Part shown: one piece after another, positions 2,553-60,814 of the stretch
How the letters are laid out: each line of letters begins with the position of its first letter
Numbering within the stretch: position 1 is the first letter of the stretch
Assembly: GCA_026770705.1 (NCBI GenBank)
Contig: JANJGN010000034.1
Location: forward strand, 3,286,001-3,350,000
Reading direction: 5' to 3'
DNA from: Isurus oxyrinchus
Taxonomy: Eukaryota
DNA length: 64,000 nt
The notes under the pieces: generated by a model
Told to the model about the DNA's origin: nothing
Database searches by the model: none
The model's input: only the letters and a program-made list of their open reading frames with translations
Made by a program: the position numbers and the translations under genes

Positions 2553-2579
2553 CTCGATCCTTGTCAAGTATAGACCTAG
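2553..2579 (-). CDS. Candidate 27-nt phase-1 microexon, (x)RSILDKDR
   Basis: ttttatgctttatctatctgtttacag|CTAGGTCTATACTTGACAAGGATCGAG|gtaaat. Resembles exon 19285-19311. Confidence 0.55.
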
Positions 2580-2627
2580 CTGTAAACAGATAGATAAAGC
2601 ATAAAAAAAATTACTATTGATGCTTAC

Positions 2628-2656
2628 GTGACTGCAGGCGCATTGTTTTCATTTTT
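2628..2656 (-). pseudogene. Candidate 29-nt exon (KMKTMRLQS), not frame-symmetric
   Basis: attttcaattcag|AAAAATG...GTCAC|gtaagc. One base short of a phase-1 30-mer within an A run, and the downstream intron is only 48 nt. Confidence 0.3.
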
Positions 2657-3869
2657 CTGAATTGAAAATATAATTTTCCGCAATGCGTTCGGTCCGTTTG
2701 AAACAGCTCAGGGATTATCCAATTCGGCAGAAAATAACAAACAAACAAACAAAAAAAAAATAAGAAATCAATGTCCTGTGAAAATAATATATTTAAATTG
2801 GGTTTGTGCTTGAAATTTACGTTTCACCTGAAGTGCTTTCACAATTGCGCTGACATGCCGGACCAGTACATATTTTCTGGAATGCGGCTCGACCCTAAAA
2901 CATTATTTATCAGAACCGGCTGCCCTACCAGGAGTGGAGGCCTAGTGATGAGATAATAGCCTTCGGAGAAGTAAACTTGCTGATTATTTCTCATTCGGCT
3001 TAAATTGGTGAATGTTAACTTGTCTCTTAGCTGTTCTAACAATCCCGCGACATGTATCAAGCTGATAGAAACTGAATCGCCGCCTTCTCACGTCATATTC
3101 CCGTACAAGATTCTGAGATGCGATTCCTCCCTTTCGGCCTCTTCCCTCTTCATTGTCCAACGCACCACAACTTCCCAGATGGGACAGCGATTCGAGTAGA
3201 TTTCATAGTGGCAGTTGAAAGTACTGTCTGATCTGGACTGGGGAACTGACATGCAAATTGGCTGATCAATTTGGAGAAAACTCCAATAGTGACCTCGCGC
3301 TTTCAGGCATTGTTCAGCTTCCTTCCACCCACCCCCCCCCCCCCCCCCACTTTTACTGTCACTTTGACCAATCTCCTGTTGTGTTCCATTCAATGCCAAT
3401 GCGACCTCGAAAGAAAACAGCTCAATATGCTTTAACACAATTTTCATTAGAAGTGAAAGTTGCGTTCAATATTTTCGGAGTATAACCCCAAAATTGGATG
3501 AGCCCGCTAAAATTCATAAGTAAACTTACATATCTACGCGGATGAATCAAAGTTATGGAACTGACTGGCCTTTACTACAGTGAGCTGATGTGAACACTTT
3601 CAGACGAAAGGCGTTCTTCTATGGAGAAAATTACTCTCTGCCTCCCCGACTCAAGCCGGTGCCTCCATTTTATGTCATGTTTTTTACTTTGCAAACTTTT
3701 CTTTTACTCTAAATTCGTTTTATTTTCCTTTTCTGGACGGCAGCTATTTATCGTTTTGCCTTGTGCACCTCTGACAGTGGCGTCTCTTTAAATCGCCCCA
3801 TTATCGCAGCATTGGACTTAATCGCACAATTACTTTGACTTTTACTCTCTCAGCTATTCATCCACTCAA

Positions 3870-4480
3870 CTGCAATTGCTCGTTTTGACTTTTCCTCACC
3901 CTCCACCTTTCTATTGATTGAAACCTATTGCTTTCCTATCATTTCCCACTTATAATGAGGGGACATTGATCTGAAATCGAACTGCTTCCTTTTTCACAGT
4001 TGCTTACTGTTCTGCTGGGAATTTCCCGCATTTTCTGTTTTGTATCAAACCGCTGTTGGCAGCTAAAAAAAATCATTGACATCTCGTCTGGCAAATAAGA
4101 AAGGGGAGGGAAAAGAGGACAAGAACACAGCCTATAAAAAATACAATAGGGGAATCAATCCCTTGAACATCATTGCAGCAGTTACATATAATTACATAAA
4201 ATGCATAGTTTCTCCCAGGCTATTTCCTCTCACCATATCACAATATCTTTCGCTCCCCTCTGCATCATGTATTAGCGAGATTTTCATTAAGCGCAACAAT
4301 GATTTTAACTTCAGTTAATCAATTTGTTCGATACCCTCGTCTGCCTCCGGATAGAGAATGTTCTATATGTTATTATTCTGAAATAAAGTCCTTTAACCGA
4401 TATTATAATTCTGTTTCTCTGTCCACAGGTTTTGCCAGCCATGCTGAGTTTTTCGAGCATTTCTATTTTTATTTCAATCG
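3870..4480 (+). mobile_element. Two degenerate Penelope-like 3' end remnants
   Basis: Terminal motifs such as ctctgtccacag..gccagccatgctgagtttttcgagcatttc are similar to the ends of the younger copies at 11774 and 13528. Confidence 0.5.
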
Positions 4481-4677
4481 TACTGAACTTTGTCTTGAAC
4501 TGAATCATGCCCAAGTTGTATATTTGGCATTCCGTAGTACTTCATAACTTTATCCGGATCTGGCAATTACTTGAATGACCCAGGATAATTTTCTATGGCA
4601 TTATGAAATCATACAGAGGATAAGAATATGTTTTCCGTTTAGGCTAATATGAAATGTTTATTCCTTATTTCGTGTAC

Positions 4678-4704
4678 CTGCATCTTGAAGCAGTTTGTCA
4701 AGAT
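4678..4704 (-). CDS. 27-nt phase-1 microexon, (x)LDKLLQDA
   Basis: tttcatgtgttttttcag|ATCTTGACAAACTGCTTCAAGATGCAG|gtacac. 24/27 identical to exon 20171-20197, with two synonymous differences. Confidence 0.7.
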
Positions 4705-5605
4705 CTGAAAAAACACATGAAATAGAAATTAATTGAGAAGTTGATGTGAGATAAATGAAGCACAAAGCGTCAATTGTCACTTTTCACGATGATATGGAAC
4801 CGATTCTATCAAATTTAACATTCTATTCGATTTTCTAGTCTACTGACCTCATGGTTACACTAAAAGAAATCCACATGTACCATGCCTCCATAGGCAGCTC
4901 ACCACACAGGGAATACTTCAATGTCTGGACGGATATAGAGAAGAGATTCTTGGCTTCTGACTCTTAGCAGTTTGGCTCAACCAGTTGTCTTTCGTTTCGT
5001 TTCAATGAGTCGTTTTCGTTCAGTCTCTGCTTAATATACATGGTTCCTATGATTGCTTATGGTTCTAATGCAGGAAAGAGCTGAAGGTTCAGCAAGACGT
5101 TAGGCAAAATCACTTTAAAAGTTTCCATTTTCGAATCGCTGAAGACAAGAAGTTGCCCTGAATTTAACAGTGGAGAATAGCATGTGCTGATTTGGTCGAT
5201 TAAATGTCAAAATGTTTTTCCTGATCTGTAAGATGAGCATCAGGCTTGATATCAGGATGCACGGATGCTACCATGTTGTTGATCATGCATGTTCATCTTT
5301 GAAATGCATGTTCATTACTTGTGCTTAAGCTACATGGAGCTTGACTGGTATATCACCATTGCAGAAAGTACACTGTCTACAACATAATCAGTGAATGCTA
5401 GATCAATGGAATGTATTCATAGATTTACTGATTTCTGACTGTCCCTGTAGTCAGAGCAATAATCAGTCTATTGAGTTCCCTAAACCCCCGAAGCATATGT
5501 TCATTCCTACGGTGACGTCATGCTTCAAGTTTACATGACTTTTGGCCATATGTAGCCACTAGTTTGCAGAGTAAAACATGCTCGATGCACCGCCTATTCA
5601 CTTAC

Positions 5606-5680
5606 TGTCTGTAATTATCTCTATGTATGAATCAATTTTGTTCTGTTCATTACCTGGATTGAAGAGGCATCGGGAGCCAT
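5606..5680 (-). CDS. Candidate 75-nt phase-1 exon, DGSRCLFNPGNEQNKIDSYIEIITD (an internal donor would give a 27-nt form, 5654-5680)
   Basis: tttctccttgcag|ATGGCTCC...ACAGACA|gtaagt. Open reading frame, symmetric phase. Confidence 0.6.
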
Positions 5681-6329: not shown

Positions 6330-6900
6330 ACAGGAAAATTCGAGTTTGACAACAGCAGCGGACACCAACTTCTGAACGTCAACCTAGAAGAAATTGCCAG
6401 ATCAGCGTTTCAAATAGATATGAAGAGCTGAAAGACAACATAATGTAAAAATTGGCTAGAGCACAGTCACAATGAATTTCTTGGGCCAGCGTAACAATAT
6501 TTCGAATGTGAAATGCTTCCCGGATGATTGGATGTTCGGAGCAATCGTGAACTGCCAAAATGGGCAATTGACCGATGGCAGTAGCGGGAGTGGCACAAGA
6601 CTCTTGCCAATACCTGGCAAGGTCTTCAGAAAGTTGTTCTCCGAAGGAATGAAAAACAAAAATATACTGTACCCTTGGTGAAGAAAGGACAGGTTCCCTG
6701 GGTGGCAGTTCATTCTGCGAGGAGGTCATTAGGCTCTGGAAGATGGTAGTGCTGAGCCTAGATTATAGGAAACCAGTTGTCGTGAACTTCAATGAATTGT
6801 GGAAGATTTTTTTATAGCTTTTATCGGCAGCCGTTCTGCTACATCACAAGACGATTCGGCATTCATAATTCGCAAAGTAGCTTCTTCAAATATACCATTG
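6330..6900 (+). mobile_element. RTE-clade LINE reverse transcriptase fragment, degenerate
   Basis: FPDDWMFGAIV..GTRLLPIPGKVF..GEERTG..YRKPVVVNF matches the RTE RT N-terminal pattern (PDDW..GII..RGITLLSIPGKVF..EEQAGF..PL.INF). Confidence 0.75.
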
Positions 6901-7199
6901 CACCAGCTGGAAGTTTGATGTAACATGGTTCTGTTCATACGAAGCTAACACACACTAACACATCCAAACAGCAGATTTAATAGCATGCCCATGGAGCCTT
7001 AGTTGCTGCAGCAGCATGCACCTTTACACTGATCTTGTAGCCGGAAGTTATTTCAGTAATGGTAGAGTGTCCAATTTTTTTCCATCACATGGCCGACCCA
7101 GAATATGTCCAGCTCCTACCGTCTGCCATTGGTCTGTGTTATAATGGTTTACACATTGATACTCACCATTTTGTGACCACGTTGTGCTTTGCACATCAA

Positions 7200-7545
7200 G
7201 TCCTGGAGTATGACTTGAAAGTAAGGATGTAATTGCATTACATACATTTCACAGAAGTTTCAACCCATTCTTTCCTAGAAAGAAGGAGCTACCCTATGAG
7301 GAGCGTTTCAATGCGTTGGGAATGTAACCATTGGACTTATGAAGATTGAGTTGCGAGCTTACTTAAAGGCAAATGATTCTGGGATAGTTGCTGAAATAAT
7401 GTCCCCCCTCGTGGCACGAGGCAACAAGCATTAGAAATAGGCTGTCTCCTCTTCAAAGCGGAATCAGTTTAGAACGTGACTGCATGGTTGCTCTGCATTA
7501 AGTTGTTATGGACTGATGGGTCAAAAGGTCCTCTGTACATTGATA
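7200..7545 (+). mobile_element. CR1-group LINE 3' fragment
   Basis: Degenerate YEERFNALG-type RT tail, followed by a gatgggtcaaaaggtcc 3' tail motif. Confidence 0.55.
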
Positions 7546-11301: not shown

Positions 11302-11773
11302 GTTCTATGTGGACAATCGCTTAGTCTGAGAATCCTCGTACTAAACTCTCAATCAAACGAAATCTGCCTCTGAACATATAACCGACAAGGTGGAACATTA
11401 TGTACACAAAACCTCTCTGCCTAAGCCTTGGAGAAACTAACACGAATAATTGTCACCTATTAAGGCTACTCTGAATTTTAAAAACATTGATCGATTCGTT
11501 GTCGATTGCACAAGCAAGCAGCGCTTATTCATCACAACTTGTTCAGGGGTATTTTGCTTGGGTTCCACCAGTGCCTCTTGGCTTCCGACATCCCTCCATC
11601 CCTGTTGCAAACATGGTTAAAAAAAACAAAAGAAATTAGGACAGACTGAAAGTATTGCTCTCCAAATCATATTGCCACCGATGTGGCATCAAGATGCACA
11701 AGCAAAATTTGGAGTCAACATGAATCAGGCAGAAAACTCTCTTTTAGATGGAATCATAATTGGCACAAACTCA

Positions 11774-12943
11774 AAACAAAAACAGAATCACCTGGAAAAA
11801 CTCAGCAGCTCTGGCAGCATCGACGAAGAAGAAAAGAGTTTACGTTTCGAGTCCTCATGACCCTTCGACAGAACTAGGTGAATCCCAGGAAGAGTTCAAA
11901 TATAAGGTGGTTTAAGGTGGTGGGTGGGGGGGGGGGGGGTGGGGAAGTGGGGCTTGGTGGGGGGAGAGAAGTGCAGGGGGGTGGTGTTGTAGGCAAAAGC
12001 AGTGATAGAAGCAGATCATCAAAAGATGTCACAGGCGGCAGAACAAAAGAACACATAGGTGTCGGAGTTGGTGATATTATCTAAACGAATGTGCTAATTA
12101 AGAATGGATGGTAGGGCACACAAGGTATAGCTGAAGAGGGGGTGGGGGGAGCATAAAATATTTTAAAATATTTAAAAATAACGGAAAGAGGAGGGAAAAA
12201 GAAATAGCTATATAATTTATTTGAAAAAAGCAAAAGGAAGGGGGAAGAAACAGAAAGGGATGGAGATGGAGGAGGGAGGTCAAGACCTATAGTTGTTGAA
12301 TTCAATATACAGTCCGGAAGGCTGTAAAGTGCCTAGTCGGTAGATGAGGTGTTGTTCCTCCAGTTTGCGTTGGTTTCACTGGAACAATGCAGCAAGCCAA
12401 GGACAGATATGTGGGCAAGAGAGCAGGGCAGAGTGTTGAAATAGCAAGCGACAGGGAGGTTTGGGTCATTCTTGCGTACAGACCACAGGTGTTCTGCAAC
12501 GCGGTCGCCCAGTTTACGTTTGGTCTCTCCAATGTAGAGGAGACCGCATTGGGAGCAACTAATGCAGTACAATAATTTGGATAAAATGCAAGTGAAATGT
12601 TGCTTCACTTGAAAGGAGTGTTTTGGCCCTTGGACGGTGAGGAGAGAGGAAGTGAAGGGGCAGGTGTTACATCTTTTGCGTGGGCAAAGGGTGGTGCCAT
12701 AGCTGGGGGTTGGGGAGTAGCGGGTGATGGAGGAGTGGACCAGGGTGTCCCGGAGGGAATGATCCCTATGGAATGTCGACAGTGGCCGTGAAGGGAACAT
12801 GTGTTTGGTAGTGGCATCATACTGGAGTTGGCGGAAATGGCGGAGGATGATCCTTTGAATGCGGAGGCTGGTGGGGTGATAGGTGAGGACAAGGGGGACC
12901 CTATCATCTTTCTGGGAGGGAGGAGAAGGCGTGAAGGCGTGAA
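11774..12943 (-). mobile_element. Penelope-like element, 5'-truncated, with GIY-YIG endonuclease
   Basis: ORF 12333-13067 contains RVPLVLTYHP...CNTCP...LLYCISCSQCGLLYIGETKRKLGDRVAEH (PLE GIY-YIG). TSD ggcacaaactca (11762-11773) / ggcacaacctca (12944-12955). Confidence 0.92.
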
Positions 12944-13527
12944 GGCACAACCTCATATGGTTGTGATTGTTGGAGGTCAGTGATCTGCAAAACTCTATCA
13001 CTACAGGAGTTCGAATGGACACTTTCCTAAACAGAATAATATTGTGAGTACCATCAAGGACGTTCAATCAGTCATAACTTCAGAAATTCTTATGCATGCC
13101 AATATTCACAGTGTTCATTCAGCTCCTCAAATAAGTCAGCAGTAGGTGGTCACGTGGAACAAGTCATGGACAGGGTTACATCTGTGCCTGTTAGGTGACC
13201 AGCAAAAGTCGTACCTTACCACTGTCAAGTAATTATTTTCCCCAACAAGATAAGTCTAACAAACACTCCTTGATATCTATTGCATTATTGGCAAGAAACC
13301 TGATAAAATATGCCACACTAGTTACAAAATCAGGTAACATTCTTGATATTTTAAGGTGAGAAGCAATCCTCTTTATTTTCGAAATCTGGTGCACGATCAA
13401 GAAATTAGATTTCAAGAAGGGTCTCCAATTGCCTTTCAATGAAATCAGGCCCAACAACACTAAGTAATCTATAGAAAACCAAAGTCAAAACAGCCCATTT
13501 GTTCGACACTGACCTTCGCCATTATAT

Positions 13528-13740
13528 GGTCTGGCAGCATCGGCGGAGAAGAAAAGAGTTGACGTTTCGAGTCTTCATGACCCTTCGACAGAACTGATCC
13601 CAAGTTCTGTCGAAGGGTCATGAAGACTTGAAACGTCAACTCTTTTCTTCTCTGCCGATGCTGCCAGACCTGCTGAGTTTTTCCAGGTAATTCTGTTTTT
13701 GTTTTGGATTTCCAGCATCCACAGTTCTCTTTGTTTTTAT
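13528..13740. mobile_element. Penelope-derived short insertion with inverted terminal segment (68-bp hairpin)
   Basis: Arms 13528-13595 and 13603-13670 are 66/68 complementary around a 7-nt loop. Exact 13-bp TSD ttcgccattatat at 13515-13527 and 13741-13753. Confidence 0.93.
13603..13641 (+). ncRNA. Minimal hammerhead-ribozyme-like motif (variant core CUGUCGA)
   Basis: AGUU-CUGUCGA-A-GGGUC(AUGAA)GACUU-GAAA-C-GUC-AACU has stem I, stem II and a GUC cleavage triplet. Further copies lie on the minus strand at 13557-13595 and 11837-11875. Confidence 0.55.
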
Positions 13741-15939: not shown

Positions 15940-15966
15940 TTCCTGGTGATTTTATTTTTGGTCATG
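15940..15966 (-). pseudogene. Candidate 27-nt microexon with in-frame TGA in phase 1
   Basis: ggtttgttttag|CATGACCAAAAATAAAATCACCAGGAA|gtatat reads (x)*PKIKSPG. It is open if read in phase 2. Confidence 0.3.
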
Positions 15967-16609
15967 CTAAAACAAACCTGTTGTCTCGTCCAAAACACTG
16001 CTTCCTAACAAATGCATACAGAAAATCGGCAAATATAGTTAAAGCATATTGTGGGGAATAGCGCTAGAAAGCAAGCCGTGAAATTGTTCCCTGACTCCGT
16101 GGCTACCCACAATCATCTTAGTGAAATGCAGTATTTTGGCTGTCATGACGAAAGAATAGCGTTAAATTGATGCATATGACGTGAAGGTGGCACTTCTGAA
16201 TTACTGCTCTCATGCACCTGCGCCTATATACATTCCACATTTGAGGAGATCGAGTTTTTGGGAGTTGCTGCCATATAATGCTGATGTCGATGGTGCGCAT
16301 TGCTTACAAGAGATCACATTATGTCATCCTGACTTGAGTGAGTGAACGTTTGGCTTATTTTAGCATTTTTTGAGTAAGTGAAATGTATCTTCTGACTCTT
16401 AATTTACTTGGAGGTATCAAAATTAATTATAGAGCCCTGTTCAATTAACTCCGCTGTTTGAGGGACCAGTGGGGATGTGTGTGCGAGATTTTGCCTAAAC
16501 AGATGTCTTGTTTTATGTTTAGTGTTTGATATTTTAATTGTTATTATTCTATCATGGGATATGGAATTCACTGGCAAAACAAACATTTGTTCCAGATCCA
16601 TAATCGCTC

Positions 16610-17150: not shown

Positions 17151-17186
17151 CTTTAGAATTGATTTGTTCTGTTAGTCTTGCTATTT
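17151..17186 (-). CDS. 36-nt phase-1 microexon, (E)IARLTEQINSK
   Basis: tttctcccattgctttccttcag|AAATAGC...CTAAAG|gtaata. Heptad-like, and the same size and start as exon 60779-60814. Confidence 0.65.
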
Positions 17187-17272
17187 CTGAAGGAAAGCAA
17201 TGGGAGAAATATGTAAATTATTTTCAGGTTAAGTATCTCGATTATTACTGATTTTTCTTTATCGTAATTTAC

Positions 17273-17284
17273 CTGTTTGTACTG
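17273..17284 (-). CDS. Candidate 12-nt phase-1 microexon, (x)VQT
   Basis: ttctgattgatttag|CAGTACAAACAG|gtaaat, with an 86-nt intron to the next exon. Confidence 0.4.
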
Positions 17285-19284: not shown

Positions 19285-19311
19285 CTTTGTCCTTTTCAAT
19301 CATTGCCTTGG
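19285..19311 (-). CDS. 27-nt phase-1 microexon, (x)KAMIEKDK
   Basis: tttcaatttctattttcag|CCAAGGCAATGATTGAAAAGGACAAAG|gtgaat. Confidence 0.65.
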
Positions 19312-20170: not shown

Positions 20171-20197
20171 CTGCGTCTTGAAGAAGTTTGTCAAGAC
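20171..20197 (-). CDS. 27-nt phase-1 microexon, (x)LDKLLQDA
   Basis: ttctgtttcattttgaag|GTCTTGACAAACTTCTTCAAGACGCAG|gtacaa. Paralog of 4678-4704. Confidence 0.7.
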
Positions 20198-21839: not shown

Positions 21840-21841
<2 letters not shown>

Positions 21842-21877: not shown

Positions 21878-21879
<2 letters not shown>

Positions 21880-23166: not shown

Positions 23167-23196
23167 CTGATAAGCTGAATTTGGAACTAAAGGTTT
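23167..23196 (-). CDS. 30-nt microexon (phase 1 xTFSSKFSLS, or phase 0 KPLVPNSAYQ)
   Basis: ctttttatttgttggtgatag|AAACC...TATCAG|gtaaga. Confidence 0.5.
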
Positions 23197-24830: not shown

Positions 24831-27009
24831 CCCGCCCTCTCTCGACACTGCAGAGTACATTACATTTCAAATACGGCTAATACGAAATTCATCCCTTATC
24901 AGCAACTAAAAACCAGTAATGGTAGCGAAGTTTGTATTTTCCTCTCTTTTGATTATGAAGTATTCAGTACTTCGGCGAAGATAAAACAAAACATAAATGC
25001 TGAGCAAAGGAAAAAATATAGTTCCCTTTTGCAGACTTGAAATGCAAAATGCAGATGGAAAGGTATAAACTCCCATGTCATTGAGAGCGTTTCACCGCTC
25101 TTTCTTAAAATGTGCACCCCTTCTTCCTCATTTTTCTTGTGCATTAGTATAGATAGAAAAAAAAAATTCTCACTCCGCATTTGTGTTTTGTCTCGAATTA
25201 TTTGCCCATTTCTTTTGCATTACCAAAGGCAGAGAAGTTGAAATAATTAGGGGAATTCTGAGGGAGGATTTATTTAGTACAATGAGTTGCTCTCATCTGG
25301 AACGTGCTTCCAGAACATGTTGTGGATGCAGGTTGATTACCTTTAAAAATGACGTTTGTATGTGTTTTCCCAAGGGAATCAAACTTCGTCGGAAGTGGAG
25401 TTGTCAAAGGAACATTTTTTTTTTTAACACGATGTGTGGTAATTAGCTGGAACTTTCTGCCTATAAGCTTTAGGAAGTGCAGTCAATCAGTTATTTCAAA
25501 ATTAAATTTCATGGATTCCTGAAGGCAACAGTGGTTTTAGATGCGTGGGAGGAGTAGCGGGGGAAGCGTGAGTGGAACTGGCTGCTTATCCATGGCGAGC
25601 CACCATGGAATCGATCAGCCAAATGCCTTCCTTCTGTGCTTTATTGGCAATATGGCTCTATCAATCCTATCATTGAATGAGAGGAATTTCGAATGTTATT
25701 GCCAGAGATGACTGACCTGGGTTAAAGTCTTCTTCCAAATAGCCAGCACAGAAAGAAACGGTCAGATAACCATATTGTGTGCCGTGCGATACTATGAATA
25801 GTTCTGAACAGTTTTCTCATATTGGGGGAATGGGGGTGGTGGTGGGTGGTGGGTCGTGTGTGGTGATGTGGGTGGAAGGCAGGTGAAACTTTACCATCGG
25901 TTTTGCGCTACCACACAAGACCCATGTAGATCCTTCAGTCATTAATTGGTCACAGTTCTCCTTCTCTACCAATGCGGTGGCTGTTGGAAACCAAACTGTT
26001 ATAGTATATATTATTTATCGTCTTGTATCCTGCTTATTTCTGTTCCTTTTTCCTGAACGTTTAATGCTGGAATGTTCCAACCAGATATCAGAAAAGCAGT
26101 GCTCAATCTGGTAGCTTTGCTGGGTTCAAATTCGGCTGGATCCATAGAGGAAAAAATATGCATATTGCATGTACATGGATCGAGGTATATTCTTATGCAA
26201 ACATGAAATAACTCAAATGAAGTCGCAATACGTTGTATATTTATCTATCAAAGTTGCCTTTAATGAAGTAAAATTGCTTGCGAAATTAATGCCTTTTTCT
26301 CTGAATATCAATGGTTTCAAACAACGGTCTGAATTCAAAGGCTTCAGGATCAGGTTTCTTGAAGCTCTCGAATTTACATACTGCTTTTGCTGAACGTTCT
26401 TTCCCTTGGTTCATCTGATTGGATGATACGTCACGACTGTATTACATTCTTAGATGTTTTTATTGTCAGTCGGAAAGTGAACTACTGTCAACAAAATTTA
26501 TGGTGGGCCATTAAATAACCTACTCCAAATGTGAGAACCCAGGAAAAGCATTGCCACCATCAGCTTGTCAAATCTCTGATAGCCTCAAGCCTGCTTGCAG
26601 CCAAAGTTTGTATGAAGCTGTCTTGCTCAACTATATCTGACCATCTCACCCTTTTGTTTCTGAATAACTGTTTGGCGAACCACGGCCTGTTCAAAGTACT
26701 AAACAAGTTTTGAATATTTGTCTGCCATTGCGTGGGAACATTTCAGTGCCCAAATTACATGTCCAATGCTGAGCATAACCTTTAACCCCTCCATACATAA
26801 TCCGGGAAGAACTACTGAGTGATTCACATCATGCACATGGAACATTTTATTTGATTGTGATATTCTAAAAATAGTGATTATCCCTGCTCACAAGCAGTTG
26901 GGAGGATACATACGCAAAATAAATCAATTCATTTTTTCGATTGAAATGTGCCATCACACATTAATGGATAATCAGAAGTAGTGCAAAATATGTATGTACT
27001 CAAGTATGC

Positions 27010-46900: not shown

Positions 46901-47346
46901 AATGAATGTAAGGCTGTCCAATTACGAGGTGAAAATAATTGGGATTTAAACCTCATGCTGAGGGCCTTTTGTAGCATTGTAATGGGATCACGATTCTGAT
47001 CTGACAAGCTCTTTATCTTGTGGCTGAGACAATTACAATGTTATTGGTCAGCATGGCTGCTGCTATGAGCAATTGCCAAAGACAGGATCCTGCGACATCT
47101 CATTGATTTCATTTTAAACATAGCCATTTGCCTTCGCCTAATTCAGTACTACTGCTATCGCCTGGTTCTCTTTGTTTGCACTCATCCACACTCCTCCATC
47201 TCCTTTTAGATCACCCCGTTGAATATTTAAAATATCGATGCCTGAAATATGTCTAGTTATCTAGCCTGCTATTGGAGCAAAACATTTATTTAAACAATAT
47301 CTGGGCTTTAATTTAGTCTAGGTAGCCTTTGCGGTATATTTCAAAA

Positions 47347-48101: not shown

Positions 48102-49229
48102 ATTACTCACCAGTAGTTAATGAAAGAAAGGAACATCACTCTGGCGATCGATTAATAATAGTTAATGATATGAAGCCTATTATTGAACATAGCATTGAAT
48201 CAGTTTGAGCTACCCTATTAGTGAATATTTAGATGATGCACTTTAAAACTAACTGCAACATCTATAACTCTACTTATTAAGTCACTACTGCATTTATGTA
48301 AGAGATACCAATATCCAATGAATTGACTGAACCTAACGTGACTCCATGGAATACTAATGTTTTACAATATTAACTGCAATCTGAAATTGACTGCTCAGTT
48401 CCTCAAATAAATCATGACAGAAATGATTCCAGAAGATGGCTTAACGTTGCCTTCTGAAAGGATTATTGGAAACTTCAAACTAAGTGAGGACTGGAAAGCA
48501 AGCAAAAAGTTATGAATTAATTTAGTTTTAAATCAAAAAGAAAATCAGCATCAGTTCCTAAGGTAACTTAAGCCCAAAGTAGTTTTTGCGTTGATTGATA
48601 CCAGTGGGTCTACTTCATCTAGGCGTGTCAACTTGATGCTCCAATGGTCTTCAGTAAACAATATGTCACTATCCCTAAATGTTGTTTGATTTTTAGTAGC
48701 TGTAATGTGAACAAAAGTCAAAAAGAAACACACTTTTACCACTACACGAGCAATGCCACTAATGGCTGGCAGTCATTTCCCAACAACATTTGTGTGAATT
48801 GATAATCTGGTTTTCCTTGAAGACTTTAAGACCAAACAATGGGCGAAGTCTTGTATGACTTTTGATGCCACAGGTGCTCTACTTTAGATAGATGCTCCCA
48901 CATTTATGACTGTCTCAGCACTTTTGTTTAAAACGCAGCTTTGTGAACCAAAGGCCTTTAAGAATTTCATCGAAATTTTATTTCAAATTTCTGACTTCTT
49001 AGTTTAAGCTTACCATGCCCATGGTTAAAGAATAGAATGGATATGCAAAATACCCCCTTCCTGGTTTGAATGGACTATCCACCCTGTCCAAACAATCCAA
49101 TCTACTCCAGGCGTATCTGCTCTCAGTTAATCACCCTTCCCACACTGGCTCACAATGATTGCTTCTGCATTATTCTCACCTTCCACCCCACAAGTCTGCA
49201 TACGTGGGAAAATGTGATATTTTTCCTTT

Positions 49230-49790
49230 TATTAGTGAGAAAAAAGGAGAGGCAATTAACTAAATGATGAGATATTGCAGAGCTCTGAGATAGAGAGAGA
49301 TCTGGGTCCCTTAGTGCATGAATTACAGAAGGCTGCCTGCAGGTACAGAAAGTAATTGCCAATGCTCATCGAATGTTATAATTTATTGTTAGGGGAGTTG
49401 GATACAAAGATAATGATTTTATGCTTCATTTATACAGCGCACTAGTGAGATCACATCTAGACAATAGCGTACAATATTGCTCAGATTATTTAAGAAAATG
49501 TGCAAATGCGTTGGAACCATTTCTGGCATGTTTTAGAAGAGCAATGAGGCTAAACTATCTCCTTCAGAGGTTTCTGGGCCTTTGGAACTCTCTTCCTGAA
49601 AAAGGCGGTAGACCATATTATGGCAAGTGTGGATAGATTCTTGGTAAGTAAGGGAGTGACAGGTTATTAGTGTTACTCAGGATGCAGATTTGAGGTTGTG
49701 ATCAGAAAAGCCATGATCTTATCGAATGACAGTGAAGGTTCGAGGGGCCAAATGGCCTAATTCTGCTCCTTGTTCGTACGTTTGCATGTT
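49230..49790 (+). mobile_element. CR1 3' fragment (internally deleted)
   Basis: MLHLYSALVRSHLDNSVQY and QRFLGLWNSLP, plus a tail. Confidence 0.8.
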
Positions 49791-52700
49791 TGCATTAAAA
49801 AAGCCATCATACAATGATGGTGCAACTTTCACCAATTTTCCGCCAGTGGATATTTCTTCAGCACGTTCCCATTTCAGCTTTCCAATGGTCTCGTTCCCCT
49901 CACAACACACTGGTCGCACCGCTCTCTGTTCTTTTAAATGACTTCTATTCCCAAATTGTTTAACATCCACTCGGAATCAAATCCTCGTATTAACGTTATT
50001 ACATGTTATCAAGCCCTCTGTCTTTAAATAAAAAGCCCCTGATGAGTTTTCCAGGTAGTTCTGTTTTTTTTTTTGGATTTCCAGCATCCGCAGTTTCTTG
50101 TTTTTATCTTATTGAATCTTTACCTGAATCAGTTGCAGACGAAAAATGGTCTGTGGGACAAACCAAACAAAGGAACAAAGAAACAAACAGTTAAAGAAAT
50201 AAATAGGCAGATAGATAAATAAATGTTAAAGAGTTAAATAGATCAACAAATAAGTATATAAATAAATAAAAAACTTATCAATTTCATGCATCTCAGCGAT
50301 GGCATACATTTTAAGAGTTGAATGATATAGCAAAAATGAATCGCACAGTTAGCCAGAGTTATGGAAGCAGAGGAAAGACTTTATTTCGCTTGAACAATGC
50401 TCATGGAAACACAACTTACTGCCACTAACGATCGTTTGAATGGATGAAATTTGCTTACTTGCAAAAAAAAGACACCTAATGCAAGGGCGATGGCATTGTT
50501 GCATTCCTTCTACATAGTTAAAAATTGGTGCTTAATTTGCAATCGTACGCCCAGGGGTCCCAGGAAATACAAGGACAAGCAAGTCCTGCACCGCCTGATG
50601 AGTACACAAAGATGCCAGTGGTGGGAGAAATAGCGCATGTCTATTGACTGCAACTGGCCATAAACCGGTGTCTGTGCCACCTGCGCATTTTCAATTGTTC
50701 CTAGGTCCTTCTAAATATACAGCATTGATTGGTAAATGTACTGTCTTGAGTTATGTGAGGGAGGAATGGGTCAGCTGAGAAAAAAAAAAGTACTTGGCAA
50801 AACACCGAATCGAGAAGCGGCGCGATGAATCTCTATATCCCCGGGTTTGGGGTCAAGGCAAATGAAGCCAATCCAGGATCATTGAGGTAATAGATCTTAA
50901 ATGTTTGTGGGTGTAGAAGATGTTACATTAATGTAAATTTGAGGGCGTGCAGCGATATTTTTTTTTTTAAAGTTGAATATTTTTATTTCAAGACGTTGCT
51001 TGTCTGGATGACAGTTCAATTCAGCGACCATAAGTGTGATAGGGGAACTAGACTTGTTACTCAGTAACCATTGACATCTGAATTTTGGATCAACTTAAGT
51101 TTATTAGTTAAGCAGTAAATAACATGTGGGAGTCCAGCCGGCAGTTCATTTCAACAGTCGTGTCTATAGGTAATCAAGGCACAAGCGTGGGTTTCAGCAG
51201 CAGCTGAGCTGAGACAATCGCCAGGTGACGCGATTTTGCATGTAAGTGAAAACTCTTACTGATGACATCAACATCAGGCCAGGAGCTGATGTTGGTATCA
51301 GATTAATCTCAGATTATTGCTCGGGAGAAGGCCTAGGTCGGTACTTTGGGTAAGAAGCTTGCAGAGTGGAGTGAATGCAATGTTTTCAATCTTACAGGTG
51401 TTTAAATGGAGAAAATTTCTGTTCAGCGGGTACTGGATCTTGGATACCTGGGCCCATCATTTAGGAGCTGTGTAGGATTATAGAGATCCCGGCTTTGACT
51501 GAGATCTGGGTAGCCCCTATGTTCATTTGGATTTTAATATTGGGCTTATTGTTGATTCAGCTGAGGGGGAGAATGGCAATTGGAAACATATGGGTGTCAA
51601 GAATAGATCTGGTGGCCATAGTTGGTCATGTTGTGTGGGCAGCAAGTTAAGATACTGCAAGTGTTTCTCTTCCAACAATTAGGTAAGAATGGACCTAACT
51701 GAGAGCATTCATGGTCAACTTGAAGAAAGTAGAGCGGCATTGAATAAAGATGGTGCGCTCGAACATCTCAAACGCCACAGGCAGGCATGAAGACAAGGAC
51801 TGAAATGTTTTATTTCTTTCACAGTCATATAATGGTTCATTTGTGACATTGATAAATACTCTTCCAGTAGCGCTATGGCGCTGGAAGATTCAAACATGGA
51901 CATTCGGGAGAGGCAGGAACAGGTTTGTAAGGCTCGGACACAAACAAGGACTTTGGTGAGGAGAGAGAGAGTTTAGGGATGAAAAGTGAATTTGCGGCCA
52001 CAGCTTCAAGTATTGACTTCTTGAGAAAGGACTGATAACGACAGAGTTAAAAGGGAAAGGGACTTTCCAAAACGGGCATATCAATAAAGGCAAACGTGTG
52101 GATCCATAGGGAAATTTATTCGATCAGCAATTTAATTGGAAAATGAGCAGGTGAATACGACCTGAATCCAATGAACACGATGAACTAAGAAGGGGCAGCT
52201 GTGTTGTTATATTAGGAAACACAGATGAAGGCGTGCTCAGGGATAAAGCAGAAACATGTATTTAAGCAAGTTGTGTCAACTGTGGTAAAGGGACGAATGC
52301 AACTGAGGCAGTTGATGGATTGTGTTAGTGACAAAGAAGGGCTTGAGCTTCGTGCAATTGATGATCGAGATGAGAAGGTGTAGGAAGAGGTTTTGCATAG
52401 ATACAAAAGTGTTGCACTGCTTTTTTCCTAACCTTGCTAAACTGTGACACAGCACTCAACGATGCATTTGCATTCTGACATCATTTATCCCGTTGTCTCT
52501 CCTAGATTTGCAGCTTCAAATAAATAAATGTCCTCATTTTTCGTGCTAGCCAGCTATACTGCCTCAGCATTTTCCCGGTATTCGACTCCACGCCGAAGGC
52601 CCACGGTGACCTGGCTGTGTTGCCACTAGACTACTAATCCTGTGACCCGTGTGGCAACATATGGTGAAATTTGAATTTCATGAAAAAATCTGATGATGAG

Positions 52701-53121
52701 CACAAAACATTGCTGATAAGTTAATATTCTTTTCTTGGTCCTTCCTACATGTGGTGTCAGGCGTACAAAAATGTGACTGAGTCTTAAATGCCTTCTGATA
52801 AAGGTCACACCCCATTAACGGATACAAGACCAGTAATATCCTGTTCTACTTTTTTTCCTCATTAGCATTGAAATAACCATTGTAGACCACCTTTTATCTG
52901 GTGACACAACACTGAGAAAAGCGAACAATATGAGTATGGCGCGCTATTGTATGTACAATTGACAAGATTCATTATCCAATTATATAGCGGAATTAATTTC
53001 TTTGCATAATAGTCAACGAACCTGAATGGCCAGACGCAGCAATATTGTGAAAGCCCCAGATTTAAGGCAACCGTCTTTCAATTATATTTTAATTATTTTA
53101 ATCTATAGATATTTCCCGGAC

Positions 53122-53157
53122 CTGTCTGCCTTGTCAATCGTTTCGATGCTTCCTTAT
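53122..53157 (-). CDS. 36-nt phase-1 microexon, (x)KEASKRLTRQT
   Basis: gatttatgttttattttcag|ATAAGG...AGACAG|gtccgg. Strong acceptor, weak donor. Confidence 0.5.
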
Positions 53158-53499
53158 CTGAAAATAAAACATAAATCAAATCATTTATGCCGTTCATTTT
53201 AGAGTAAAGAGGTTTCCATTTTGCCATGACTGGTCAGTTGAAACTATCTGGTAATTAATTAAAGCCGTCCTCTCAAAAAAAAAGTGACATTACCCATGAA
53301 GAGACTAGCTGTGCCATTCATGAGGGTGCACAAAATGACCAGATATGTCACCTTTCAAATGAAATGCTAAACTAGGGATAGACCACTGTTTTTGAGTAAT
53401 AAAAAAAAGGTATAATTTTGTAGACGGGGGGCGGCTAGCTGGTAGTGCACATGGAAGTGTGATTTTCTGTGTTTGAATTGTTATTTGTTCTTTGTATGT

Positions 53500-53800
53500 G
53501 GCATCGCTGGCTGGGCCAGCATGTATTACTCATCCCCAATTTCCCTTCAGAACTGAATGGCTTGCTAGCCTTGCCATTTCAGAGAACAGTTTTTTAGAGT
53601 CAAATGCATTGCTCAAGGTCTGGAGGGAAAGGTCATCGATAAACCAAATATGTTTTGAATGACAATCGACAATATCTTCATGTGCGCATTAGACTTCCAT
53701 ATTTTCCACCTGACTTCAAATTTCACAATCTGCCATGATGAGATTCGAACTTACAATCACATTACCTAGCTCGAGGACTAAACCAGTGAAACTATCACGA
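53500..53800 (-). mobile_element. tRNA-derived SINE
   Basis: catcgctggctgggccagcatgtatt (reverse complement of the 3' tail) through gagattcgaac (B box). Confidence 0.75.
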
Positions 53801-53959
53801 CATATTTGGTCTATTTCCTAATTTAAATTGTTCTATAATATTCTGTGTACAAGTGGATATTGTAGTTACCTGTATGACATCAGTAATTACACTTCAATGA
53901 GATCTGATTTGTTACATTGTATTTTGCATACACTTGGCCTCATTATTTACGAAGGGATA

Positions 53960-54480
53960 TACATGAGTGAGCTCAGTTAAGAGAAGATTCAAATGCCCCA
54001 TACTTGGGATGGGGCTGTAATCATATGAGGAAATATTAAACAAGATGGGACCCAATACAGTGGAGTTTAGAACAAATAACAATGATAAGTCATCTTAAAG
54101 AAAGGCAGATAGTCCCGATGGGAGTTGAAAGGCTGAAAGCTGAAAGAACTTTTCCCTTTGTGGGAAAGAATATAACAAAGTAGCACCATTGTGAAATGAG
54201 GGCTTTCCTAATAAAAACGGTAATTGGAATCGTTTTCTCCCTTTCAAAGTGTCGTGTGCCTTGTGGAACTAACTTCCAGGGACAGCGGTAGAGGCAAGAT
54301 CACTGGATATATTTATTTCGGCAGATTTAATTAGATGTTTCATCTAACCAGCGTGAGGCGTGGGCAGGCGGAATGTGGAGTTCGGGTCACATTCCCTCAG
54401 CCATGCTCTTAGTGAATGGTGGTTCAGGCTCTAGAGGCCTAATGGCCGATCCTTGCTCCTAATTTGTCTGATCTTATGCT
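53960..54480 (+). mobile_element. CR1 3' fragment
   Basis: Degenerate SYEEIL..GFR region, and a tail gaatggtggttcaggctctagaggcctaatggcc. Confidence 0.7.
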
Positions 54481-55339
54481 TCGTTTCGGATCGCCACCGA
54501 GGCTGTCAGATGTCGTTAGTCAATGAGGACTTGTTTTGCTTTCTATTTTCTCCTTTTAGTGCCAGTTGTTGGTAATTGCAATTTGACTCAAGGACCACAA
54601 ATGAGAAAGGTTGTTTCAACAACCTGCCTTGCGCTCAGCAAACATTGCTCCCTTTCTTTTCCCACTTCAAGATACTCTCCTTCGGAACTCACCTTGTCCA
54701 TGGGATTTACTTATTGTGAGCAGAATACCATAAAGCCATGTTCCAATGGAATTCACTTTCTGACATTTTGAACAGTTCATTTTTGGAGGTACCTTCTTCT
54801 CCAAAAATATCATCATTTTTCCTTCTTCAACAAGAACAGTTTAGACTTGCCTGTGCGTGATCATGCGTGCCTGCTACGCTTTCGACATGTCGCTATGAAG
54901 AGCATTCAAAAAATATTCTCAACATCATCATCTGTCCTCTTAGCGTTTTCTGCATTGAGGAAAATAATCCCAAGGGATCCGTTGTCACTCTCAACTTTTG
55001 TTACAAAGAAACTAGAAGTCAAAAAATAGAGAATTCTGAAATAAAGCATTTTTTAAATATATCACTCTGAAGCTAAGTCCAACCATAGGTTTTCATGACG
55101 GAAAATCTTTCTCATATATAACTTACGAAGTGGATAACAGACGGATAAATTCAGAATACACACTGTCTTTCGAAATGTTTGCATATTAGGAGATTATTGC
55201 GCTTTATGCTGAATACATTCCTAGATATTTTACTCTATGCCGTGTTGTCTTCTCAGGTGAGAATCCAAGCGAAGCCCTCATCCTTTGACTGAATTTTTTA
55301 ACAAAATGAGACAAAGACACTTTCCTGAATCCTACTTAC

Positions 55340-55366
55340 CTCCACTTCCATGTATTACTTTCGCTT
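55340..55366 (-). CDS. 27-nt phase-1 microexon, (x)AKVIHGSG
   Basis: ctattttgtttag|AAGCGAAAGTAATACATGGAAGTGGAG|gtaagt. Confidence 0.6.
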
Positions 55367-56214
55367 CTAAACAAAATAGTTACAAATAATGAGTAAACAA
55401 AACCGCAGTAATTGTGAAAGCACTGGCATGAGCAATTTCACGCTCTGTATTCAGTACACCTAATTCGAAGTTCAGACACAGCAAAATGCTGCTCCTAGCT
55501 CTATGTATATCGTAAATTCACGTGGGTCGATAGAATTAATTGGATGAATTAATCACATATATTCCCTCCCCCAGTTCTATTGTTACATTGACTCTGACAG
55601 AGCTGAATATGAAGAGCTCCATTTAACCAGCTCTTTATAGAGCAATACCTTTAAAGGAACATCGTTTAATACCTTTTTTGGCATTTTTAGTTGTTAAGAA
55701 AATTTCGCACTCCCAATTAAATTGATGTTGCTGTCTTTCGATCTCTTTCCGAAATTTAGGACATATTATTTTTAGCAGAGGCGTTAAATCAGAACAGTAG
55801 CCACTGTAGTTACATAGAAAATGTGGTAATTTTGTTGTGTTTATTAAAATCTAATCAAAAACAATTTCAAAATGAATAGCTAATGTTGTGATATTTGATG
55901 ATATAGCCAAGATTGAAAGCTAGACTGCATTGTTTACCGTTGCTCCAAATTGTGCACTTGCATCTTCTCTGTCTCCTGAGAGAACTTTCAGTGCCTCCTT
56001 CCTTCTTCCTTTCCAATTGATTACAACAACCAGAGTCCTTCTCTTCTGCAGTGGCCAAGGCTTCATCTACAATTTCGACATGGTTTTTGACTCACATCGA
56101 ATAGAGTGTGAAGCAACGGAGCCATCAGCTTAGTGAGCATATCTTTATGAAATAATGTAAGTGACGTTGAGGTTACACAAATTTGCAGTACTGATAGTTG
56201 GCTTGTATACTTGT

Positions 56215-57730
56215 TAGAACATAACAGAAGAAATAGCGACAGGAATTGACCATTAGGCGCTGCGAGTCTGCTCCACCATTCAATCAGGTCATGGCTGCTC
56301 TTCGTGTGCTTCAAATTCCACATTTCCATCTAACCCTGATAACTTTTCATTTTCCTTGCATTACAAGAACATATCTATTTCCAGCATAAAAAACATTGAA
56401 AGACCACGCCTCCTCCACCTTCTAAGGCAGAGAATTCTAAAGCTGCACAACCCTCTGAGAGGAACATAATCCCCACATATCTGTCCTAAAAGGGGTGCCC
56501 CTCATTTTAAAACAGTGGTCCCTAGATCTGGGCTCACCTGCAAGAGGAAACAACCTTTCAACGCCCAGTTTGACAAAGCCCTTCAGGATTTTGTATAAAA
56601 AAATCAAGTCACCCCACACTCTTCTAAACCCCAGTAGAGAGAAAAAAATTGTCTTTCCAAAGCTTCCTTATCAGAAAACCCACTCATTCCAGTAATCAGT
56701 ATAATGAACCTAATTTTAACCGCCTGCAACACATTTACATCTTTCCCTAATTGAGGAGACCAAACTGCACACAGTATTCAAGTCCAGTCTCAGCAAAGCC
56801 CTGCATAATAGAAATATAACATCTTTATTTTTTATGTTCAACCCCTCTCGTAATAAAGAAATGCATTCCATTCGCCTCCTTAAATATTTGCTCTACCTGC
56901 ATATTACGTAGTTGAGACTAATGTGCTAGAAGATCTAGATCAATCTGCACCTCAAAATTATGCAGTTGTTTTACATTTAAGTAAGACTTTGCTTTTTTGT
57001 TATTCCTGTAAAAGTGAACAATTCATACTTTCCCACGTTAAACTCCATTTGCCACATCGTTTCCCACTAATTTGCCGTATCCAAATCAATTTCCACCCTC
57101 CTCATGTCGTTTTTGTTTCATCTGCAAATTTAGCCACCATGTCTTCACTCCCGTCATCCAAGTCGTTGATGCAAATCGTAAAACATTGAGGCCCCAGTGC
57201 AGAGCCCTGTGGGCCGCCACTCATACCACCCTGCTAATGAGAATAATACCCAATGATGCACATTTTTTGCTTGTTGCCAGCCAGCCAATATTGTATCCAT
57301 GCGAAAATGTTACCCATTACACGATGTGTTTTTATTATCCGTAATAATCTTAGATGCCTAACTTATCAAATGCCTACTGGAAATCCAAGTAAAGTATTCC
57401 TGCAGGCTCCCCTTTTTCCACTGCGCATGCTACGTCAAAAAATCCAATAATTTGGTTGGATTGATTTTCCTTCCCAAAACCATGCAACTCTTACCAATTG
57501 TCTTGAGCTCTTCCAAGTGCCCAGCTATGACCTACATAATGATCGATTCCACTAACTTCTCCACGACAGACGTCAAGCTCACTGACTTATAGTTTCCTGT
57601 TGTCTGCCTTCTTGTATCGAGAGTGATATTCGCTACTCTGTAATCTTATGGAACCTTTCTGGAATCTAATGAATTTTGAAAAATTAACCATATTTAACAC
57701 AGAGTACCTCATTTGCCACCTCTTATTAAA
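56215..57730 (-). mobile_element. CR1 RT and 3' tail
   Basis: Reverse-complement INDLDD..AKFADE motif at about 57110-57170, and ORF 56437-56619 (GDLIFLYKILKG). Confidence 0.85.
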
Positions 57731-57799
57731 CCCACTCTATTCATTAAACCTATGGTGCACCATTTATAATTCTGCGGAAATCATGCATAAACACTACAA

Positions 57800-59185
57800 C
57801 TCAAGCCAGCTCACACATTGCCTTAAATCTTATGTTTCTGGCAGTGGTGGGGAAACTATTGGAAGCAATTCTGAGGGACATAATTAATCTACTTTTGGAG
57901 AGGCGAGGATTAATTAGGAGCATGGTTTTGTTAAGAGGATGTCATCTCTGGCCAAATTGATTGAATGTTTCAAAGAGGTGACCAGATTGTGCATTTGACA
58001 CAATCAACTTGGACATCAACAAGGCTATCAGCATGGTCCACGTGGGAGAAAGATAAAGAAGGTAAGTGCCCACTGGATCCAAGCCAACTTGGCTAATTTG
58101 ATCCTGAATTGGCTGAGTGGCAGGTAGCAGAGGGTGATGGTCGATGGATGTTTTTTGTGACTGAATGATTTGTCAAGTAGGGTTCCACGGGGATTGGTGT
58201 AGGTTCCCTTGCTGTTTGTGGTATATGTAAACGATTTGGACTTGAATTTAGGAGGGTTGATCATAAAGCTCGCAGATGACATGAACATTGGTGAGGTGGT
58301 AAAAAGTGAAGAGGATAGCCTTGGATTACAGGACGATATGGATGGGCCGGTCGGATGGGCCGATCGGTGGCAAATAGAATTTTATCGGGATAAGTGTGAC
58401 GAGTGGCAGGTGGGTAGGACAAACAAGGCAAAGGATACACGATGAATAGTAGGTCCCTGGGAAGTACCGAGGGGCAGAGGGACCTTGGTGTGCATGCCTA
58501 CCAATACGGTAAGGAAGAAGGTCAGTTAGATCAGGTGGTTAGAAAGATATATGGGTGACCGACCTTTAAAATACGAGGAATAGAATGTAAGTGCAGGCAA
58601 TTTATGCTGGAAAACTGAAGCTTTGGTTCGGCTGCAGCTAGAGTATTGTGCCCAATTCCGGAATCCAGATTACTGGAAGGATGTGGTTGCACTAGGGAGT
58701 GTGCAGAGGAGATTGACCAGGATGCTGCCTGGGCTCGAGAGTTTTAGTTATGAGGAGAGGGTGGATAAACAGAGGTTATTTTCATTGGAGCAGAGGAGAT
58801 TGATGGGAGACATGAACAAGGAGTATAGAAACATTAGGGGCATAGGTAGAGTGGATAAGAAAGATGGTTTCCACTTGGTGGAGTGATCAACAACTAGGTG
58901 GCATAGATTTAGCACAAGGCGGTGGAGGTTTAGGGGGGTTGTGAGGAAGAATATGCTCACCAAGAGGATTGTGGGATGTGTAACTAATTACCTGAAAGCG
59001 TGGTAGAAGCCAAAACCCTCAAAACATTTAAGGAATATTTGGATATGCATTTTCGATACCATAGCATACACGGCTATAGGCGTAGTGCTGGGAAATGGGT
59101 TAGAATACCCAGGTGCTTGTTTGAGCAGAGCACACTTGATGGGACGATGGGCCTTTTCCTGTGCTGTAGACCTGTAAGACTCTAT
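57800..59185 (+). mobile_element. CR1 RT and 3' tail
   Basis: ORFs LFVVYVNDLD..KLADD and VRLQLEYCAQF..VQRRLTRMLPGL. Confidence 0.9.
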
Positions 59186-59796
59186 AGCACTATAAATAAT
59201 GGCACAGAAAGAGAAGTAGCAAATTAAGTACCCCAATCTCATTTTGTCTTTCAATTAGGCCCTGGTCTGCAAAATGTTAGCGTGCATTCGGCCCGTGGTA
59301 TCTGCACCAACTCTCTGAATGAGCTATTCACCTAGATTTAGTCCAGCCCGGCCTTCTCAACGCAACCTTGCACGTTCCTACTTTACAATTAATAATCAAA
59401 ATCTCTTTTGAATGCATCTAGTGGAACACTCTGCACCATAAACTCAAACAACGCATTCCAAATCATTACTACGCACTGCTTGAAAAAGTTACCCATCATG
59501 TCACCATTGCTTCCTTTGCTAATTACTCAAGTGATGTGCATAGATGTTTTTTATATTGACTTCTCTCTACTGAGCCTTTTCCTATAACTCATTAAGTTTA
59601 ATAGAAGTTATTGAGAAAAATCCCCAAAACACAGTTTCACAATTTTGCGTTGAGGTGGCCTCATGATTTTTACGTGGAATTACATATTCTAACCAGAATT
59701 ATTGTGACATTCTAATGTGTGATCACGCATCAAATGTTTCGTTCTAATTTTAGAGTTACTCCCCATTTTTCCTACGCATCAACAGCTCAGGAGTAG

Positions 59797-60032
59797 TTTG
59801 TTTCGAGAATAGTTTGGTTTAGGTTTTTGGTAATAGAGATGCCCAGACCTTCGACGTTTTTTTCTCATTTGAACTACGCTTGTCAAAGCGTGAGATGCTG
59901 TGTCAGAAAATATGAATAATCAGTTACATTGTGCGATGAATGAGCATAGGGAGAATGATGATAAGACCATAGGACCATAAGACATAGGAGAGAAAATTAG
60001 GCCAATTGGCCCATCGAGTCTGCTCCACAATT
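59797..60032. repeat. 236-bp near-identical copy of 61761-61997, inside 10-bp direct repeats
   Basis: One substitution and one 1-bp indel were seen relative to the second copy. aacagctcag occurs at 59781-59790 and 60055-60064. Confidence 0.92.
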
Positions 60033-60778
60033 ATTTCCACCATTAACGATTACAAACAGCTCAGTTACATAACTGATTAATTTTCTATGTGATAGCAATT
60101 TTATGCGAGCTATCAGGATAGTGTTGCACTTAAATGTTCCGTGCAATCATGGCAAATTTGCGCTGCATCCTCCTCAAAATCAATGCATTCCCCCTGGAGT
60201 GCTGTTCCACAATGGAAAAGAATAATCCAGTTGAGGATCTAGACAGACATACGTATCAATAAAGCATCCAGTCTACCCACTTGCGCTCAGCCCCCTTGAG
60301 TTCAATTATTGTAGTGTTCAACAATCTGTGCTGGACTTATATTTATTAACAGCTAAATAATGTATATTTACTTAGGGACTATTAGCATTATTGTTGTTTG
60401 ACTGAAGTGGTATTGCAAATGTGCGGAACACCTGGTATAGAGTTATGACCTCAAATGCCATTATAACATTAATCGGAAAAAGCACATCTGGGCTTCGAGA
60501 AGCCCAGGGTTAGTCATACTAAGCAATTCGACTACAGAATTCTCAACAGGGCTAATAGCAAGCTTTGGTGAAAGGAACATATTTGCTTGTGTCTGGCTGG
60601 CCTATAGTGAATGATGTAATTTTTACAATACTTTTCTTATTTCTGAAATGGATTTTACACCCCGTCATCTGTCAAAAATGCATCTCAGCCACAACTTATC
60701 AACCGCAGTCAGAATTGAAAAAAATATTCAAATAATATAATTTTGCTGGCCTCCTCGACCAAATTCAGACTCGCTCAC

Positions 60779-60814
60779 CTGACTCTTTCAGCTTTTGTTT
60801 CAGAATTTTAATCT
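60779..60814 (-). CDS. 36-nt phase-1 microexon, (E)IKILKQKLKES
   Basis: tattgtttttctttag|AGATTAAAATTCTGAAACAAAAGCTGAAAGAGTCAG|gtgagc. Confidence 0.7.

Follow-up and report, generated by a model that had tools for sequence, protein, structure and literature searches.

A likely array of phase-1 mini-exons on the minus strand of an Isurus oxyrinchus contig, with a charged and partly helical stalk as its predicted product

Introduction

Triadin and TSBP1 (C6orf10) encode charged segments in long strings of small exons, mammalian butyrophilins have 27- and 33-nucleotide (nt) phase-1 exons ahead of B30.2, and phase-1 collagen-type exon arrays combine exons of 27 and 36 nt with Gly-X-Y triplets. Published work describes BG tails as built from split-codon exons of 21 nt with few of 18 or 24 nt (PMC5938342), and reports that in butyrophilins several very short exons separate the membrane segment from B30.2 (PMC6790196). 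Butyrophilins are present in cartilaginous fishes, and their heptad number differs among reptiles (PMC12841164). Here we analyze a 64,000-nt window (the whole stretch of DNA under study; all coordinates are positions within it) from contig JANJGN010000034.1 of Isurus oxyrinchus, in which a first-pass annotation had proposed the interior of a microexon-rich, coiled-coil-like gene or decaying pseudogene on the minus strand. We consider it probable that the firmly supported segments are exons inside one large, probably functional gene, whose product is predicted to be a charged stalk of short amphipathic helices.

A mini-exon array on the minus strand

We scored all AG..GT pairs of 9-60 nt using approximate vertebrate splice-site matrices, with thresholds fixed after first inspection of the data. 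On the minus strand, 13 firm mini-exons spanned 58 kb and together made up 366 nt, eight being 27 nt long, three 36 nt, one 30 nt and one 12 nt:

60779..60814, minus strand: A1, 36-nt phase-1 exon (EIKILKQKLKES), the 5'-most found, with strong acceptor and donor
55340..55366, minus strand: x1, 27-nt exon (EAKVIHGSG), in which a tandem AG permits an in-frame 24-nt form
53122..53157, minus strand: y1, 36-nt exon (DKEASKRLTRQT) with a strong splice pair
50124..50150, minus strand: C1, 27-nt exon (DHFSSATDS), similar to C2
23961..23987, minus strand: C2, 27-nt exon (ERFISAHEA), with donor and 3' end like those of the D exons
23167..23196, minus strand: z2, 30-nt exon (ETFSSKFSLS), scoring 10.5 against 10.1 for the best plus-strand candidate
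20171..20197, minus strand: D2, 27-nt exon (GLDKLLQDA), paralogue of D3, with a weaker acceptor, AAG
19285..19311, minus strand: E2, 27-nt exon (AKAMIEKDK), paralogue of E3
17273..17284, minus strand: s2, 12-nt exon (AVQT) lying 86 nt ahead of A2, with strong donor and weak acceptor; a tandem AG permits a 9-nt form
17151..17186, minus strand: A2, 36-nt exon (EIARLTEQINSK) with a strong splice pair
5654..5680, minus strand: F3, 27-nt exon (DGSRCLFNP); a second donor would yield 75 nt
4678..4704, minus strand: D3, 27-nt exon (DLDKLLQDA), paralogue of D2
2553..2579, minus strand: E3, 27-nt exon (ARSILDKDR), paralogue of E2 and the 3'-most found

Equal frequency of such sites on the plus strand or in randomised sequence, which the first-pass annotation had named as speaking against its proposal, was not what we found. 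Among strong pairs of 9-60 nt, 8 of 25 on the minus strand were exactly 27 nt long and 3 of 25 were 36 nt, compared with 0 of 12 and 1 of 12 on the plus strand. The minus-strand peak at 27 nt has P 1.5e-8 (7.9e-7 after multiplication by 52); in 100 local order-4 Markov controls, 27-nt exons numbered 0.14 on average and 2 at most. Across five threshold sets the 27-nt count was 4-9 on the minus strand and 0-3 on the plus strand. All eleven 27- and 36-nt exons were stop-free in phase 1, as against six in phase 0 and two in phase 2, with openness not used as a filter, and all eleven end in G ahead of GT. The shared phase 1 reported earlier was thereby confirmed, and all seven earlier peptides that we searched for lay on the minus strand between a pyrimidine tract with AG and a GT, in the places given for them; LDKLLQDA was found twice, and the 12-nt exon encoding VQT was recovered.

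Other parts of the first-pass description shrank. In place of 15-20 segments of 12-75 nt we found the 13 firm ones, of 12-36 nt, and about five weak ones, and the several clusters with introns of about 80-90 nt came down to a single pair: among 49 relaxed candidates, the 86-nt intron between s2 and A2 was the only short one, and the remaining gaps between firm exons measured 764-26,136 nt. No exon of 40-350 nt was convincing in the window (123 candidates on the plus strand, 114 on the minus), and weak splice-like candidates occurred at similar rates on both strands. None of the seven tandem-repeat rows in the window overlapped any exon. The 13 segments are likely to be mini-exons from the interior of a real protein-coding gene on the minus strand, in support of the original proposal.

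Paralogous exons and protein-level selection

Two pairs of exons are clear copies of each other. D2 and D3 are identical at 24 of 27 nt and their flanks at 29-30%; both of their whole-codon differences are synonymous in phase 1, and the two remaining phases give 0 of 3 and 0 of 2. E2 and E3 share 17 of 27 nt, with flanks 31-36% identical and a BLOSUM score of 21 in phase 1 against -3 and -2 elsewhere; their phase-1 changes are conservative, and each other frame has a stop. Both pairs are mutual best ungapped matches in a search of both strands. Similarity between paralogous exons ends at the splice sites, intron identity (29-36%) being near chance, and D precedes E in both copies, one of which continues with s and A. 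Conserved exon peptides between unrelated introns point to a multi-exon module that was duplicated in tandem long ago, apparently maintained by purifying selection on the protein.

Further likenesses were weaker. A1 and A2 (BLOSUM 13, p 0.006) were not significant after 42 tests, and neither C1 with C2 (17 of 27 nt, p 0.0025 uncorrected) nor E3 with w, a weak candidate listed below (BLOSUM 15, p 0.0012 uncorrected), clearly survived the 42 comparisons.

Helical periodicity of the predicted product

For periodicity tests, exons were joined in genomic order, on the assumption that they are spliced in that order; the tests are small, and several periods and runs were tried. The run D2-E2-s2-A2 was amphipathic with a best period of 3.65-3.7 (p 0.002-0.007 at 3.6-3.67; p 0.04-0.15 at the heptad value of 3.5), and D3-E3 peaked at 3.65-3.85 (p 0.007-0.016 at 3.6-3.67). 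Net i+3/i+4 salt bridges gave p 0.03 in the four-exon run. Charged residues make up 36% of the peptide compared with 17.6% in window frames (p 2e-6). The amphipathic module is the duplicated one only, and its best period, about 3.65, is 18/5-like and not 3.5. The "coiled-coil-like" label stands for this module and falls for the whole chain; the heptad described earlier fits less well than this period, and none of the 13 is a 21-nt heptad exon. An 18/5 periodicity of the form 7+7+4 and four-residue stutters are both described coiled-coil geometries (PMC4786415).

Domain and homologue searches

As the first-pass annotation had stated, the window yielded no Ig (immunoglobulin), membrane or B30.2 exon. 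Among its 198 open frames, Pfam models for Ig, lectin, PRY and SPRY domains gave no matches, and one frame had a sub-cutoff match to DUF4417. No convincing PRY-start motif was found in the window, nor any Rfam match; a terminal PRY-SPRY exon would be expected past position 1. Protein searches found no relative, either with the frame that runs through A1 (of 63 candidates, none reached E<=10) or with the 75-nt form of F3 (two candidates, no hit), matches of 9-12 residues being undetectable by such searches. Against 1.84 billion representatives, the 126-residue A1 frame had one match, to a tandem-repeat protein, over residues 15-67, upstream of the exon. An ESM Atlas search gave no usable match, and a literature search, with subscription journals largely outside its coverage, found no published description of such a shark gene among the papers listed.

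A hydrophobic open stretch precedes A1, with an unusual mean hydropathy of 2.24 that 11 of 327 background acceptor frames match. No relatives of it were found, it carries three charged residues (Asp, Glu and Lys), and part of it coincides with the pyrimidine tract. We consider it unlikely to be a membrane exon, with a low but non-zero chance. A1 is likewise unlikely to be the end of a long membrane exon; as in A2, a strong acceptor and the donor are exactly 36 nt apart.

Weak candidates and surrounding elements

Four further exon-like segments were weaker:

25717..25743, minus strand: 27-nt exon-like segment with TG in the acceptor position; AGs in frame would give 15- or 12-nt forms, and it has an FNP end as in F3
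15978..16004, minus strand: w, 27-nt candidate (GSSVLDETT) with an E-like peptide and poor splice sites
7167..7202, minus strand: 36-nt candidate with good donor and poor acceptor, resembling no other exon
6614..6640, minus strand: 27-nt exon-like segment with a strong pyrimidine tract, whose acceptor reads GG

The last four codons of 25717-25743 score 15 against F3, the best plus-strand control reaching 10. In the 75-nt form of F3 (5606-5680), the donor has a lower generic score than that of the 27-nt form. We also noted a weak 21-nt candidate (52891-52911) scoring inside the plus-strand background; a possible 9-nt exon (60920-60928, minus strand) 105 nt ahead of A1, with an end like that of s2 and both splice sites poor; a 35-nt acceptor-donor pair (15626-15660, minus strand) with a y1-like 3' end, interrupted by a stop whether the frame is read from one end or the other, and perhaps a dead exon; a 22-nt segment (4903-4924, minus strand) between F3 and D3, with fair splice sites and frame-shifting if included, which may be chance or a poison exon; and a 208-codon open frame without a Pfam match (29304-29927, minus strand) that contains a weak 72-nt exon candidate (29336-29407).

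The surroundings hold several repeats. Two direct copies of about 237 nt (59797-60032 and 61761-61997), 99% identical and 1,964 nt apart, enclose A1 and reflect either recent local duplication or an assembly artefact; each contains one 49-nt acceptor-donor pair, not a multiple of 3. An intronic 244-codon mobile-element open frame (12336-13067, minus strand), which we take to be Penelope-like, is 36-69% identical to 24 proteins, of which the five named to species are all from rays, in keeping with a cartilaginous-fish host; some relatives carry PF26215 or PF01541. Related short repeats lie on either side of it, at 11767-11878 and 13528-13711, and the second of these forms a 68-nt hairpin. At 47344-48104 lies an element of about 760 nt that resembles a miniature inverted-repeat transposon; its inverted arms are long, nested and 77-84% complementary. 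Decayed LINE-like fragments, presumably CR1-type, occupy 55870-59400 and 61950-64000, and many contigs of the public runs described below fall on the part within 48200-61700.

Alternative explanations

Near-miss exons numbered 7 on the minus and 10 on the plus strand, and intact 27- and 36-nt exons 11 and 0. Broken look-alikes are not in excess, and ruined exons therefore do not crowd the locus. This speaks against long decay and weakens the "decaying pseudogene" half of the first-pass proposal; the gene interior is probably still functional. A recent death, with decay now under way, seems unlikely. It would account for the missing acceptor AG at 25717-25743 and 6614-6640, the 35-nt length and stops of 15626-15660 and the weak D2 acceptor, and since exons were detected by their intactness, neutral decay amounting to a few percent would be difficult to detect. 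These points are set against the strand counts just given and the synonymous D2/D3 differences, and losing single symmetric exons would be harmless to a live gene; 25717-25743 and 6614-6640 look like such single lost exons. No RNA record was listed for 14500-24400. Four of five public runs with the same species label were compared with 48200-61700, a comparison that favours neither a live nor a dead gene. The bin of exon 53122-53157 was uncovered in all four, and that of exon 55340-55366 had a depth of 0.35 in one of the four, its position in the bin not being resolved. Among the matches listed, pieces, loose ends and seven joints lay away from the four exons of this stretch and were dispersed-repeat-like.

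The array might instead be the expanded tail or stalk of a butyrophilin/BG-like gene, or of another gene ending in B30.2 (SPRY), with the Ig, membrane and B30.2 exons outside the window. This identity, which is compatible with our preferred reading of one large gene, is possible though rather doubtful: very short exons before B30.2 (PMC6790196), presence in cartilaginous fishes with variable heptads (PMC12841164) and BG tails of split-codon exons (PMC5938342) fit it, whereas exon size (0 of 13 firm exons at the 21 nt of BG), a period of about 3.65 and not 3.5, and the lack of any Ig or PRY/SPRY match among the open frames do not. Two tandem paralogous genes divided at the 26-kb gap (about 24-50 kb) are quite unlikely. 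The gap, 26,136 nt against 86-8,775 nt elsewhere, and the A1/A2 and C1/C2 likenesses that span it would suit such a division; however, the gap yielded no first or last exon that codes for a domain, and the clearest duplication, D-E twice, lies all on one side of it. Cassette microexons of the neural SRRM3/4 type in an ordinary gene are very improbable. Exons of <=27 nt would suit that class, whose conservation extends from shark to mammals, and UGC accompanies 74-79% of neural microexons over a wider upstream stretch (bioRxiv 10.1101/2024.09.17.613571). Here TGC occurs just upstream of 1 of 13 exons, compared with 22% of 289 background acceptors; the exons are mutual copies, and the 58 kb that they span contain no domain exon of ordinary size. 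Chance splice-like sites or mobile-element pieces, in a repeat-rich window where weak candidates are equally frequent on both strands, are an extremely improbable source of the 27-nt peak, the strand bias, the frame-specific paralogy and a similarity that halts at splice sites.

Several observations weigh against a single functional gene with a helical stalk. After correction, just 2 of the 42 comparisons between exons remain clearly significant; dead acceptors or a frameshift mark two or three of the exon-like segments; and the 26-kb stretch without a firm exon could divide two genes. Searches with unbroken frames found no homologue, although matches of 9-12 residues are invisible to them. 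The splicing order is taken from genomic order, with no junction seen. Salt-bridge tests on the D+E pairs alone were not significant (p 0.10, 0.06), and no helical period appeared in the first four exons (p 0.13-0.85) or in the 13-exon chain (p 0.06-0.40), so that either exons are missing from the list in that part or it does not form a rod. The chain as a whole does not make up a single coiled coil, and unless the list lacks exons, short rods joined by hinges would be the better description of the product.

Proposed explanation

Returning to one large and probably functional gene, we propose how it could have been built. All exons are probably symmetric (phase 1-1), so that any of them could be copied, skipped or lost with the frame unshifted, and the gene may have lengthened as a module of several exons, D-E, was copied in tandem, with s-A after it in one copy. 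Nine plus nine residues make 18, or five helical turns, which would make the D+E pair a structural repeat, predicted to form a near-straight coiled coil or helical rod and not a heptad zipper. The four-residue exon would be a stutter-sized spacer, and the Ser/Gly/Pro-rich exons putative hinges. By analogy with BG and butyrophilin tails, the likely role of the stalk would be to oligomerise and to space, at an adjustable length, end domains that lie beyond the window.

Should this reading of the module be correct, the BG principle of one heptad per exon would extend to another unit size and another helix geometry, giving a clean case of exon length matching protein repeat. Tentatively, cartilaginous fishes could own a giant-gene class in which rod geometry is spelled exon by exon, in 9+9 pairs (a straight 18/5 bundle) and a four-residue stutter exon. 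Single-exon skipping or copying would then tune rod length and supercoil, and gene finders would miss the family, no exon being long enough to seed an alignment. The gene is invisible to frame-based and homology-based annotation, and the list above gives exact positions for its predicted junctions. If its ends turned out to encode Ig and B30.2, the gene would count as a greatly expanded butyrophilin of a shark or ray, relevant to gamma-delta T-cell evolution.

Comparison with known systems

The peptides here are amphipathic and mixed, unlike the Lys/Glu runs of triadin. A collagen-type array was rejected, Gly and Pro accounting for only 4% of 121 residues. In the 18/5 and hendecad coiled coils (PMC4786415), the period of 3.6-3.67 corresponds to the D+E pair here and the four-residue stutters to the 12-nt exon; those coiled coils are a geometric class and not a gene family, and the geometry here is a prediction from sequence periodicity. 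With vertebrate butyrophilins (PMC6790196, PMC12841164) the locus shares several very short exons, in a family with species-variable heptads that occurs in sharks and rays. Mammals have few such exons, compared with at least 13 over 58 kb here, and the domains that define butyrophilins are not in the window.

Chicken BG genes (PMC5938342, PMC4046983) share a long run of tiny split-codon exons, intragenic copies and a helical tail repeat that crosses exon borders. Symmetric split-codon phase-1 exons were present here in 11 of 11 cases. Unlike BG, where each 21-nt exon encodes one heptad, the exons are of 27, 36, 12 and 30 nt, the period is about 3.65 and non-helical exons are interspersed; the introns are mostly kilobases long, and the window is without an Ig or membrane exon. 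The 3.5 heptad period was not the best in the four-exon run and was absent chain-wide. We do not file the locus under BG because the 21-nt feature fails (0 of 13 firm exons), so that the comparison with BG and butyrophilins drawn in the first-pass annotation stands for architecture and not for exon size. By analogy, the array likely works like a BG tail, with tiny split-codon exons encoding a helical stalk.

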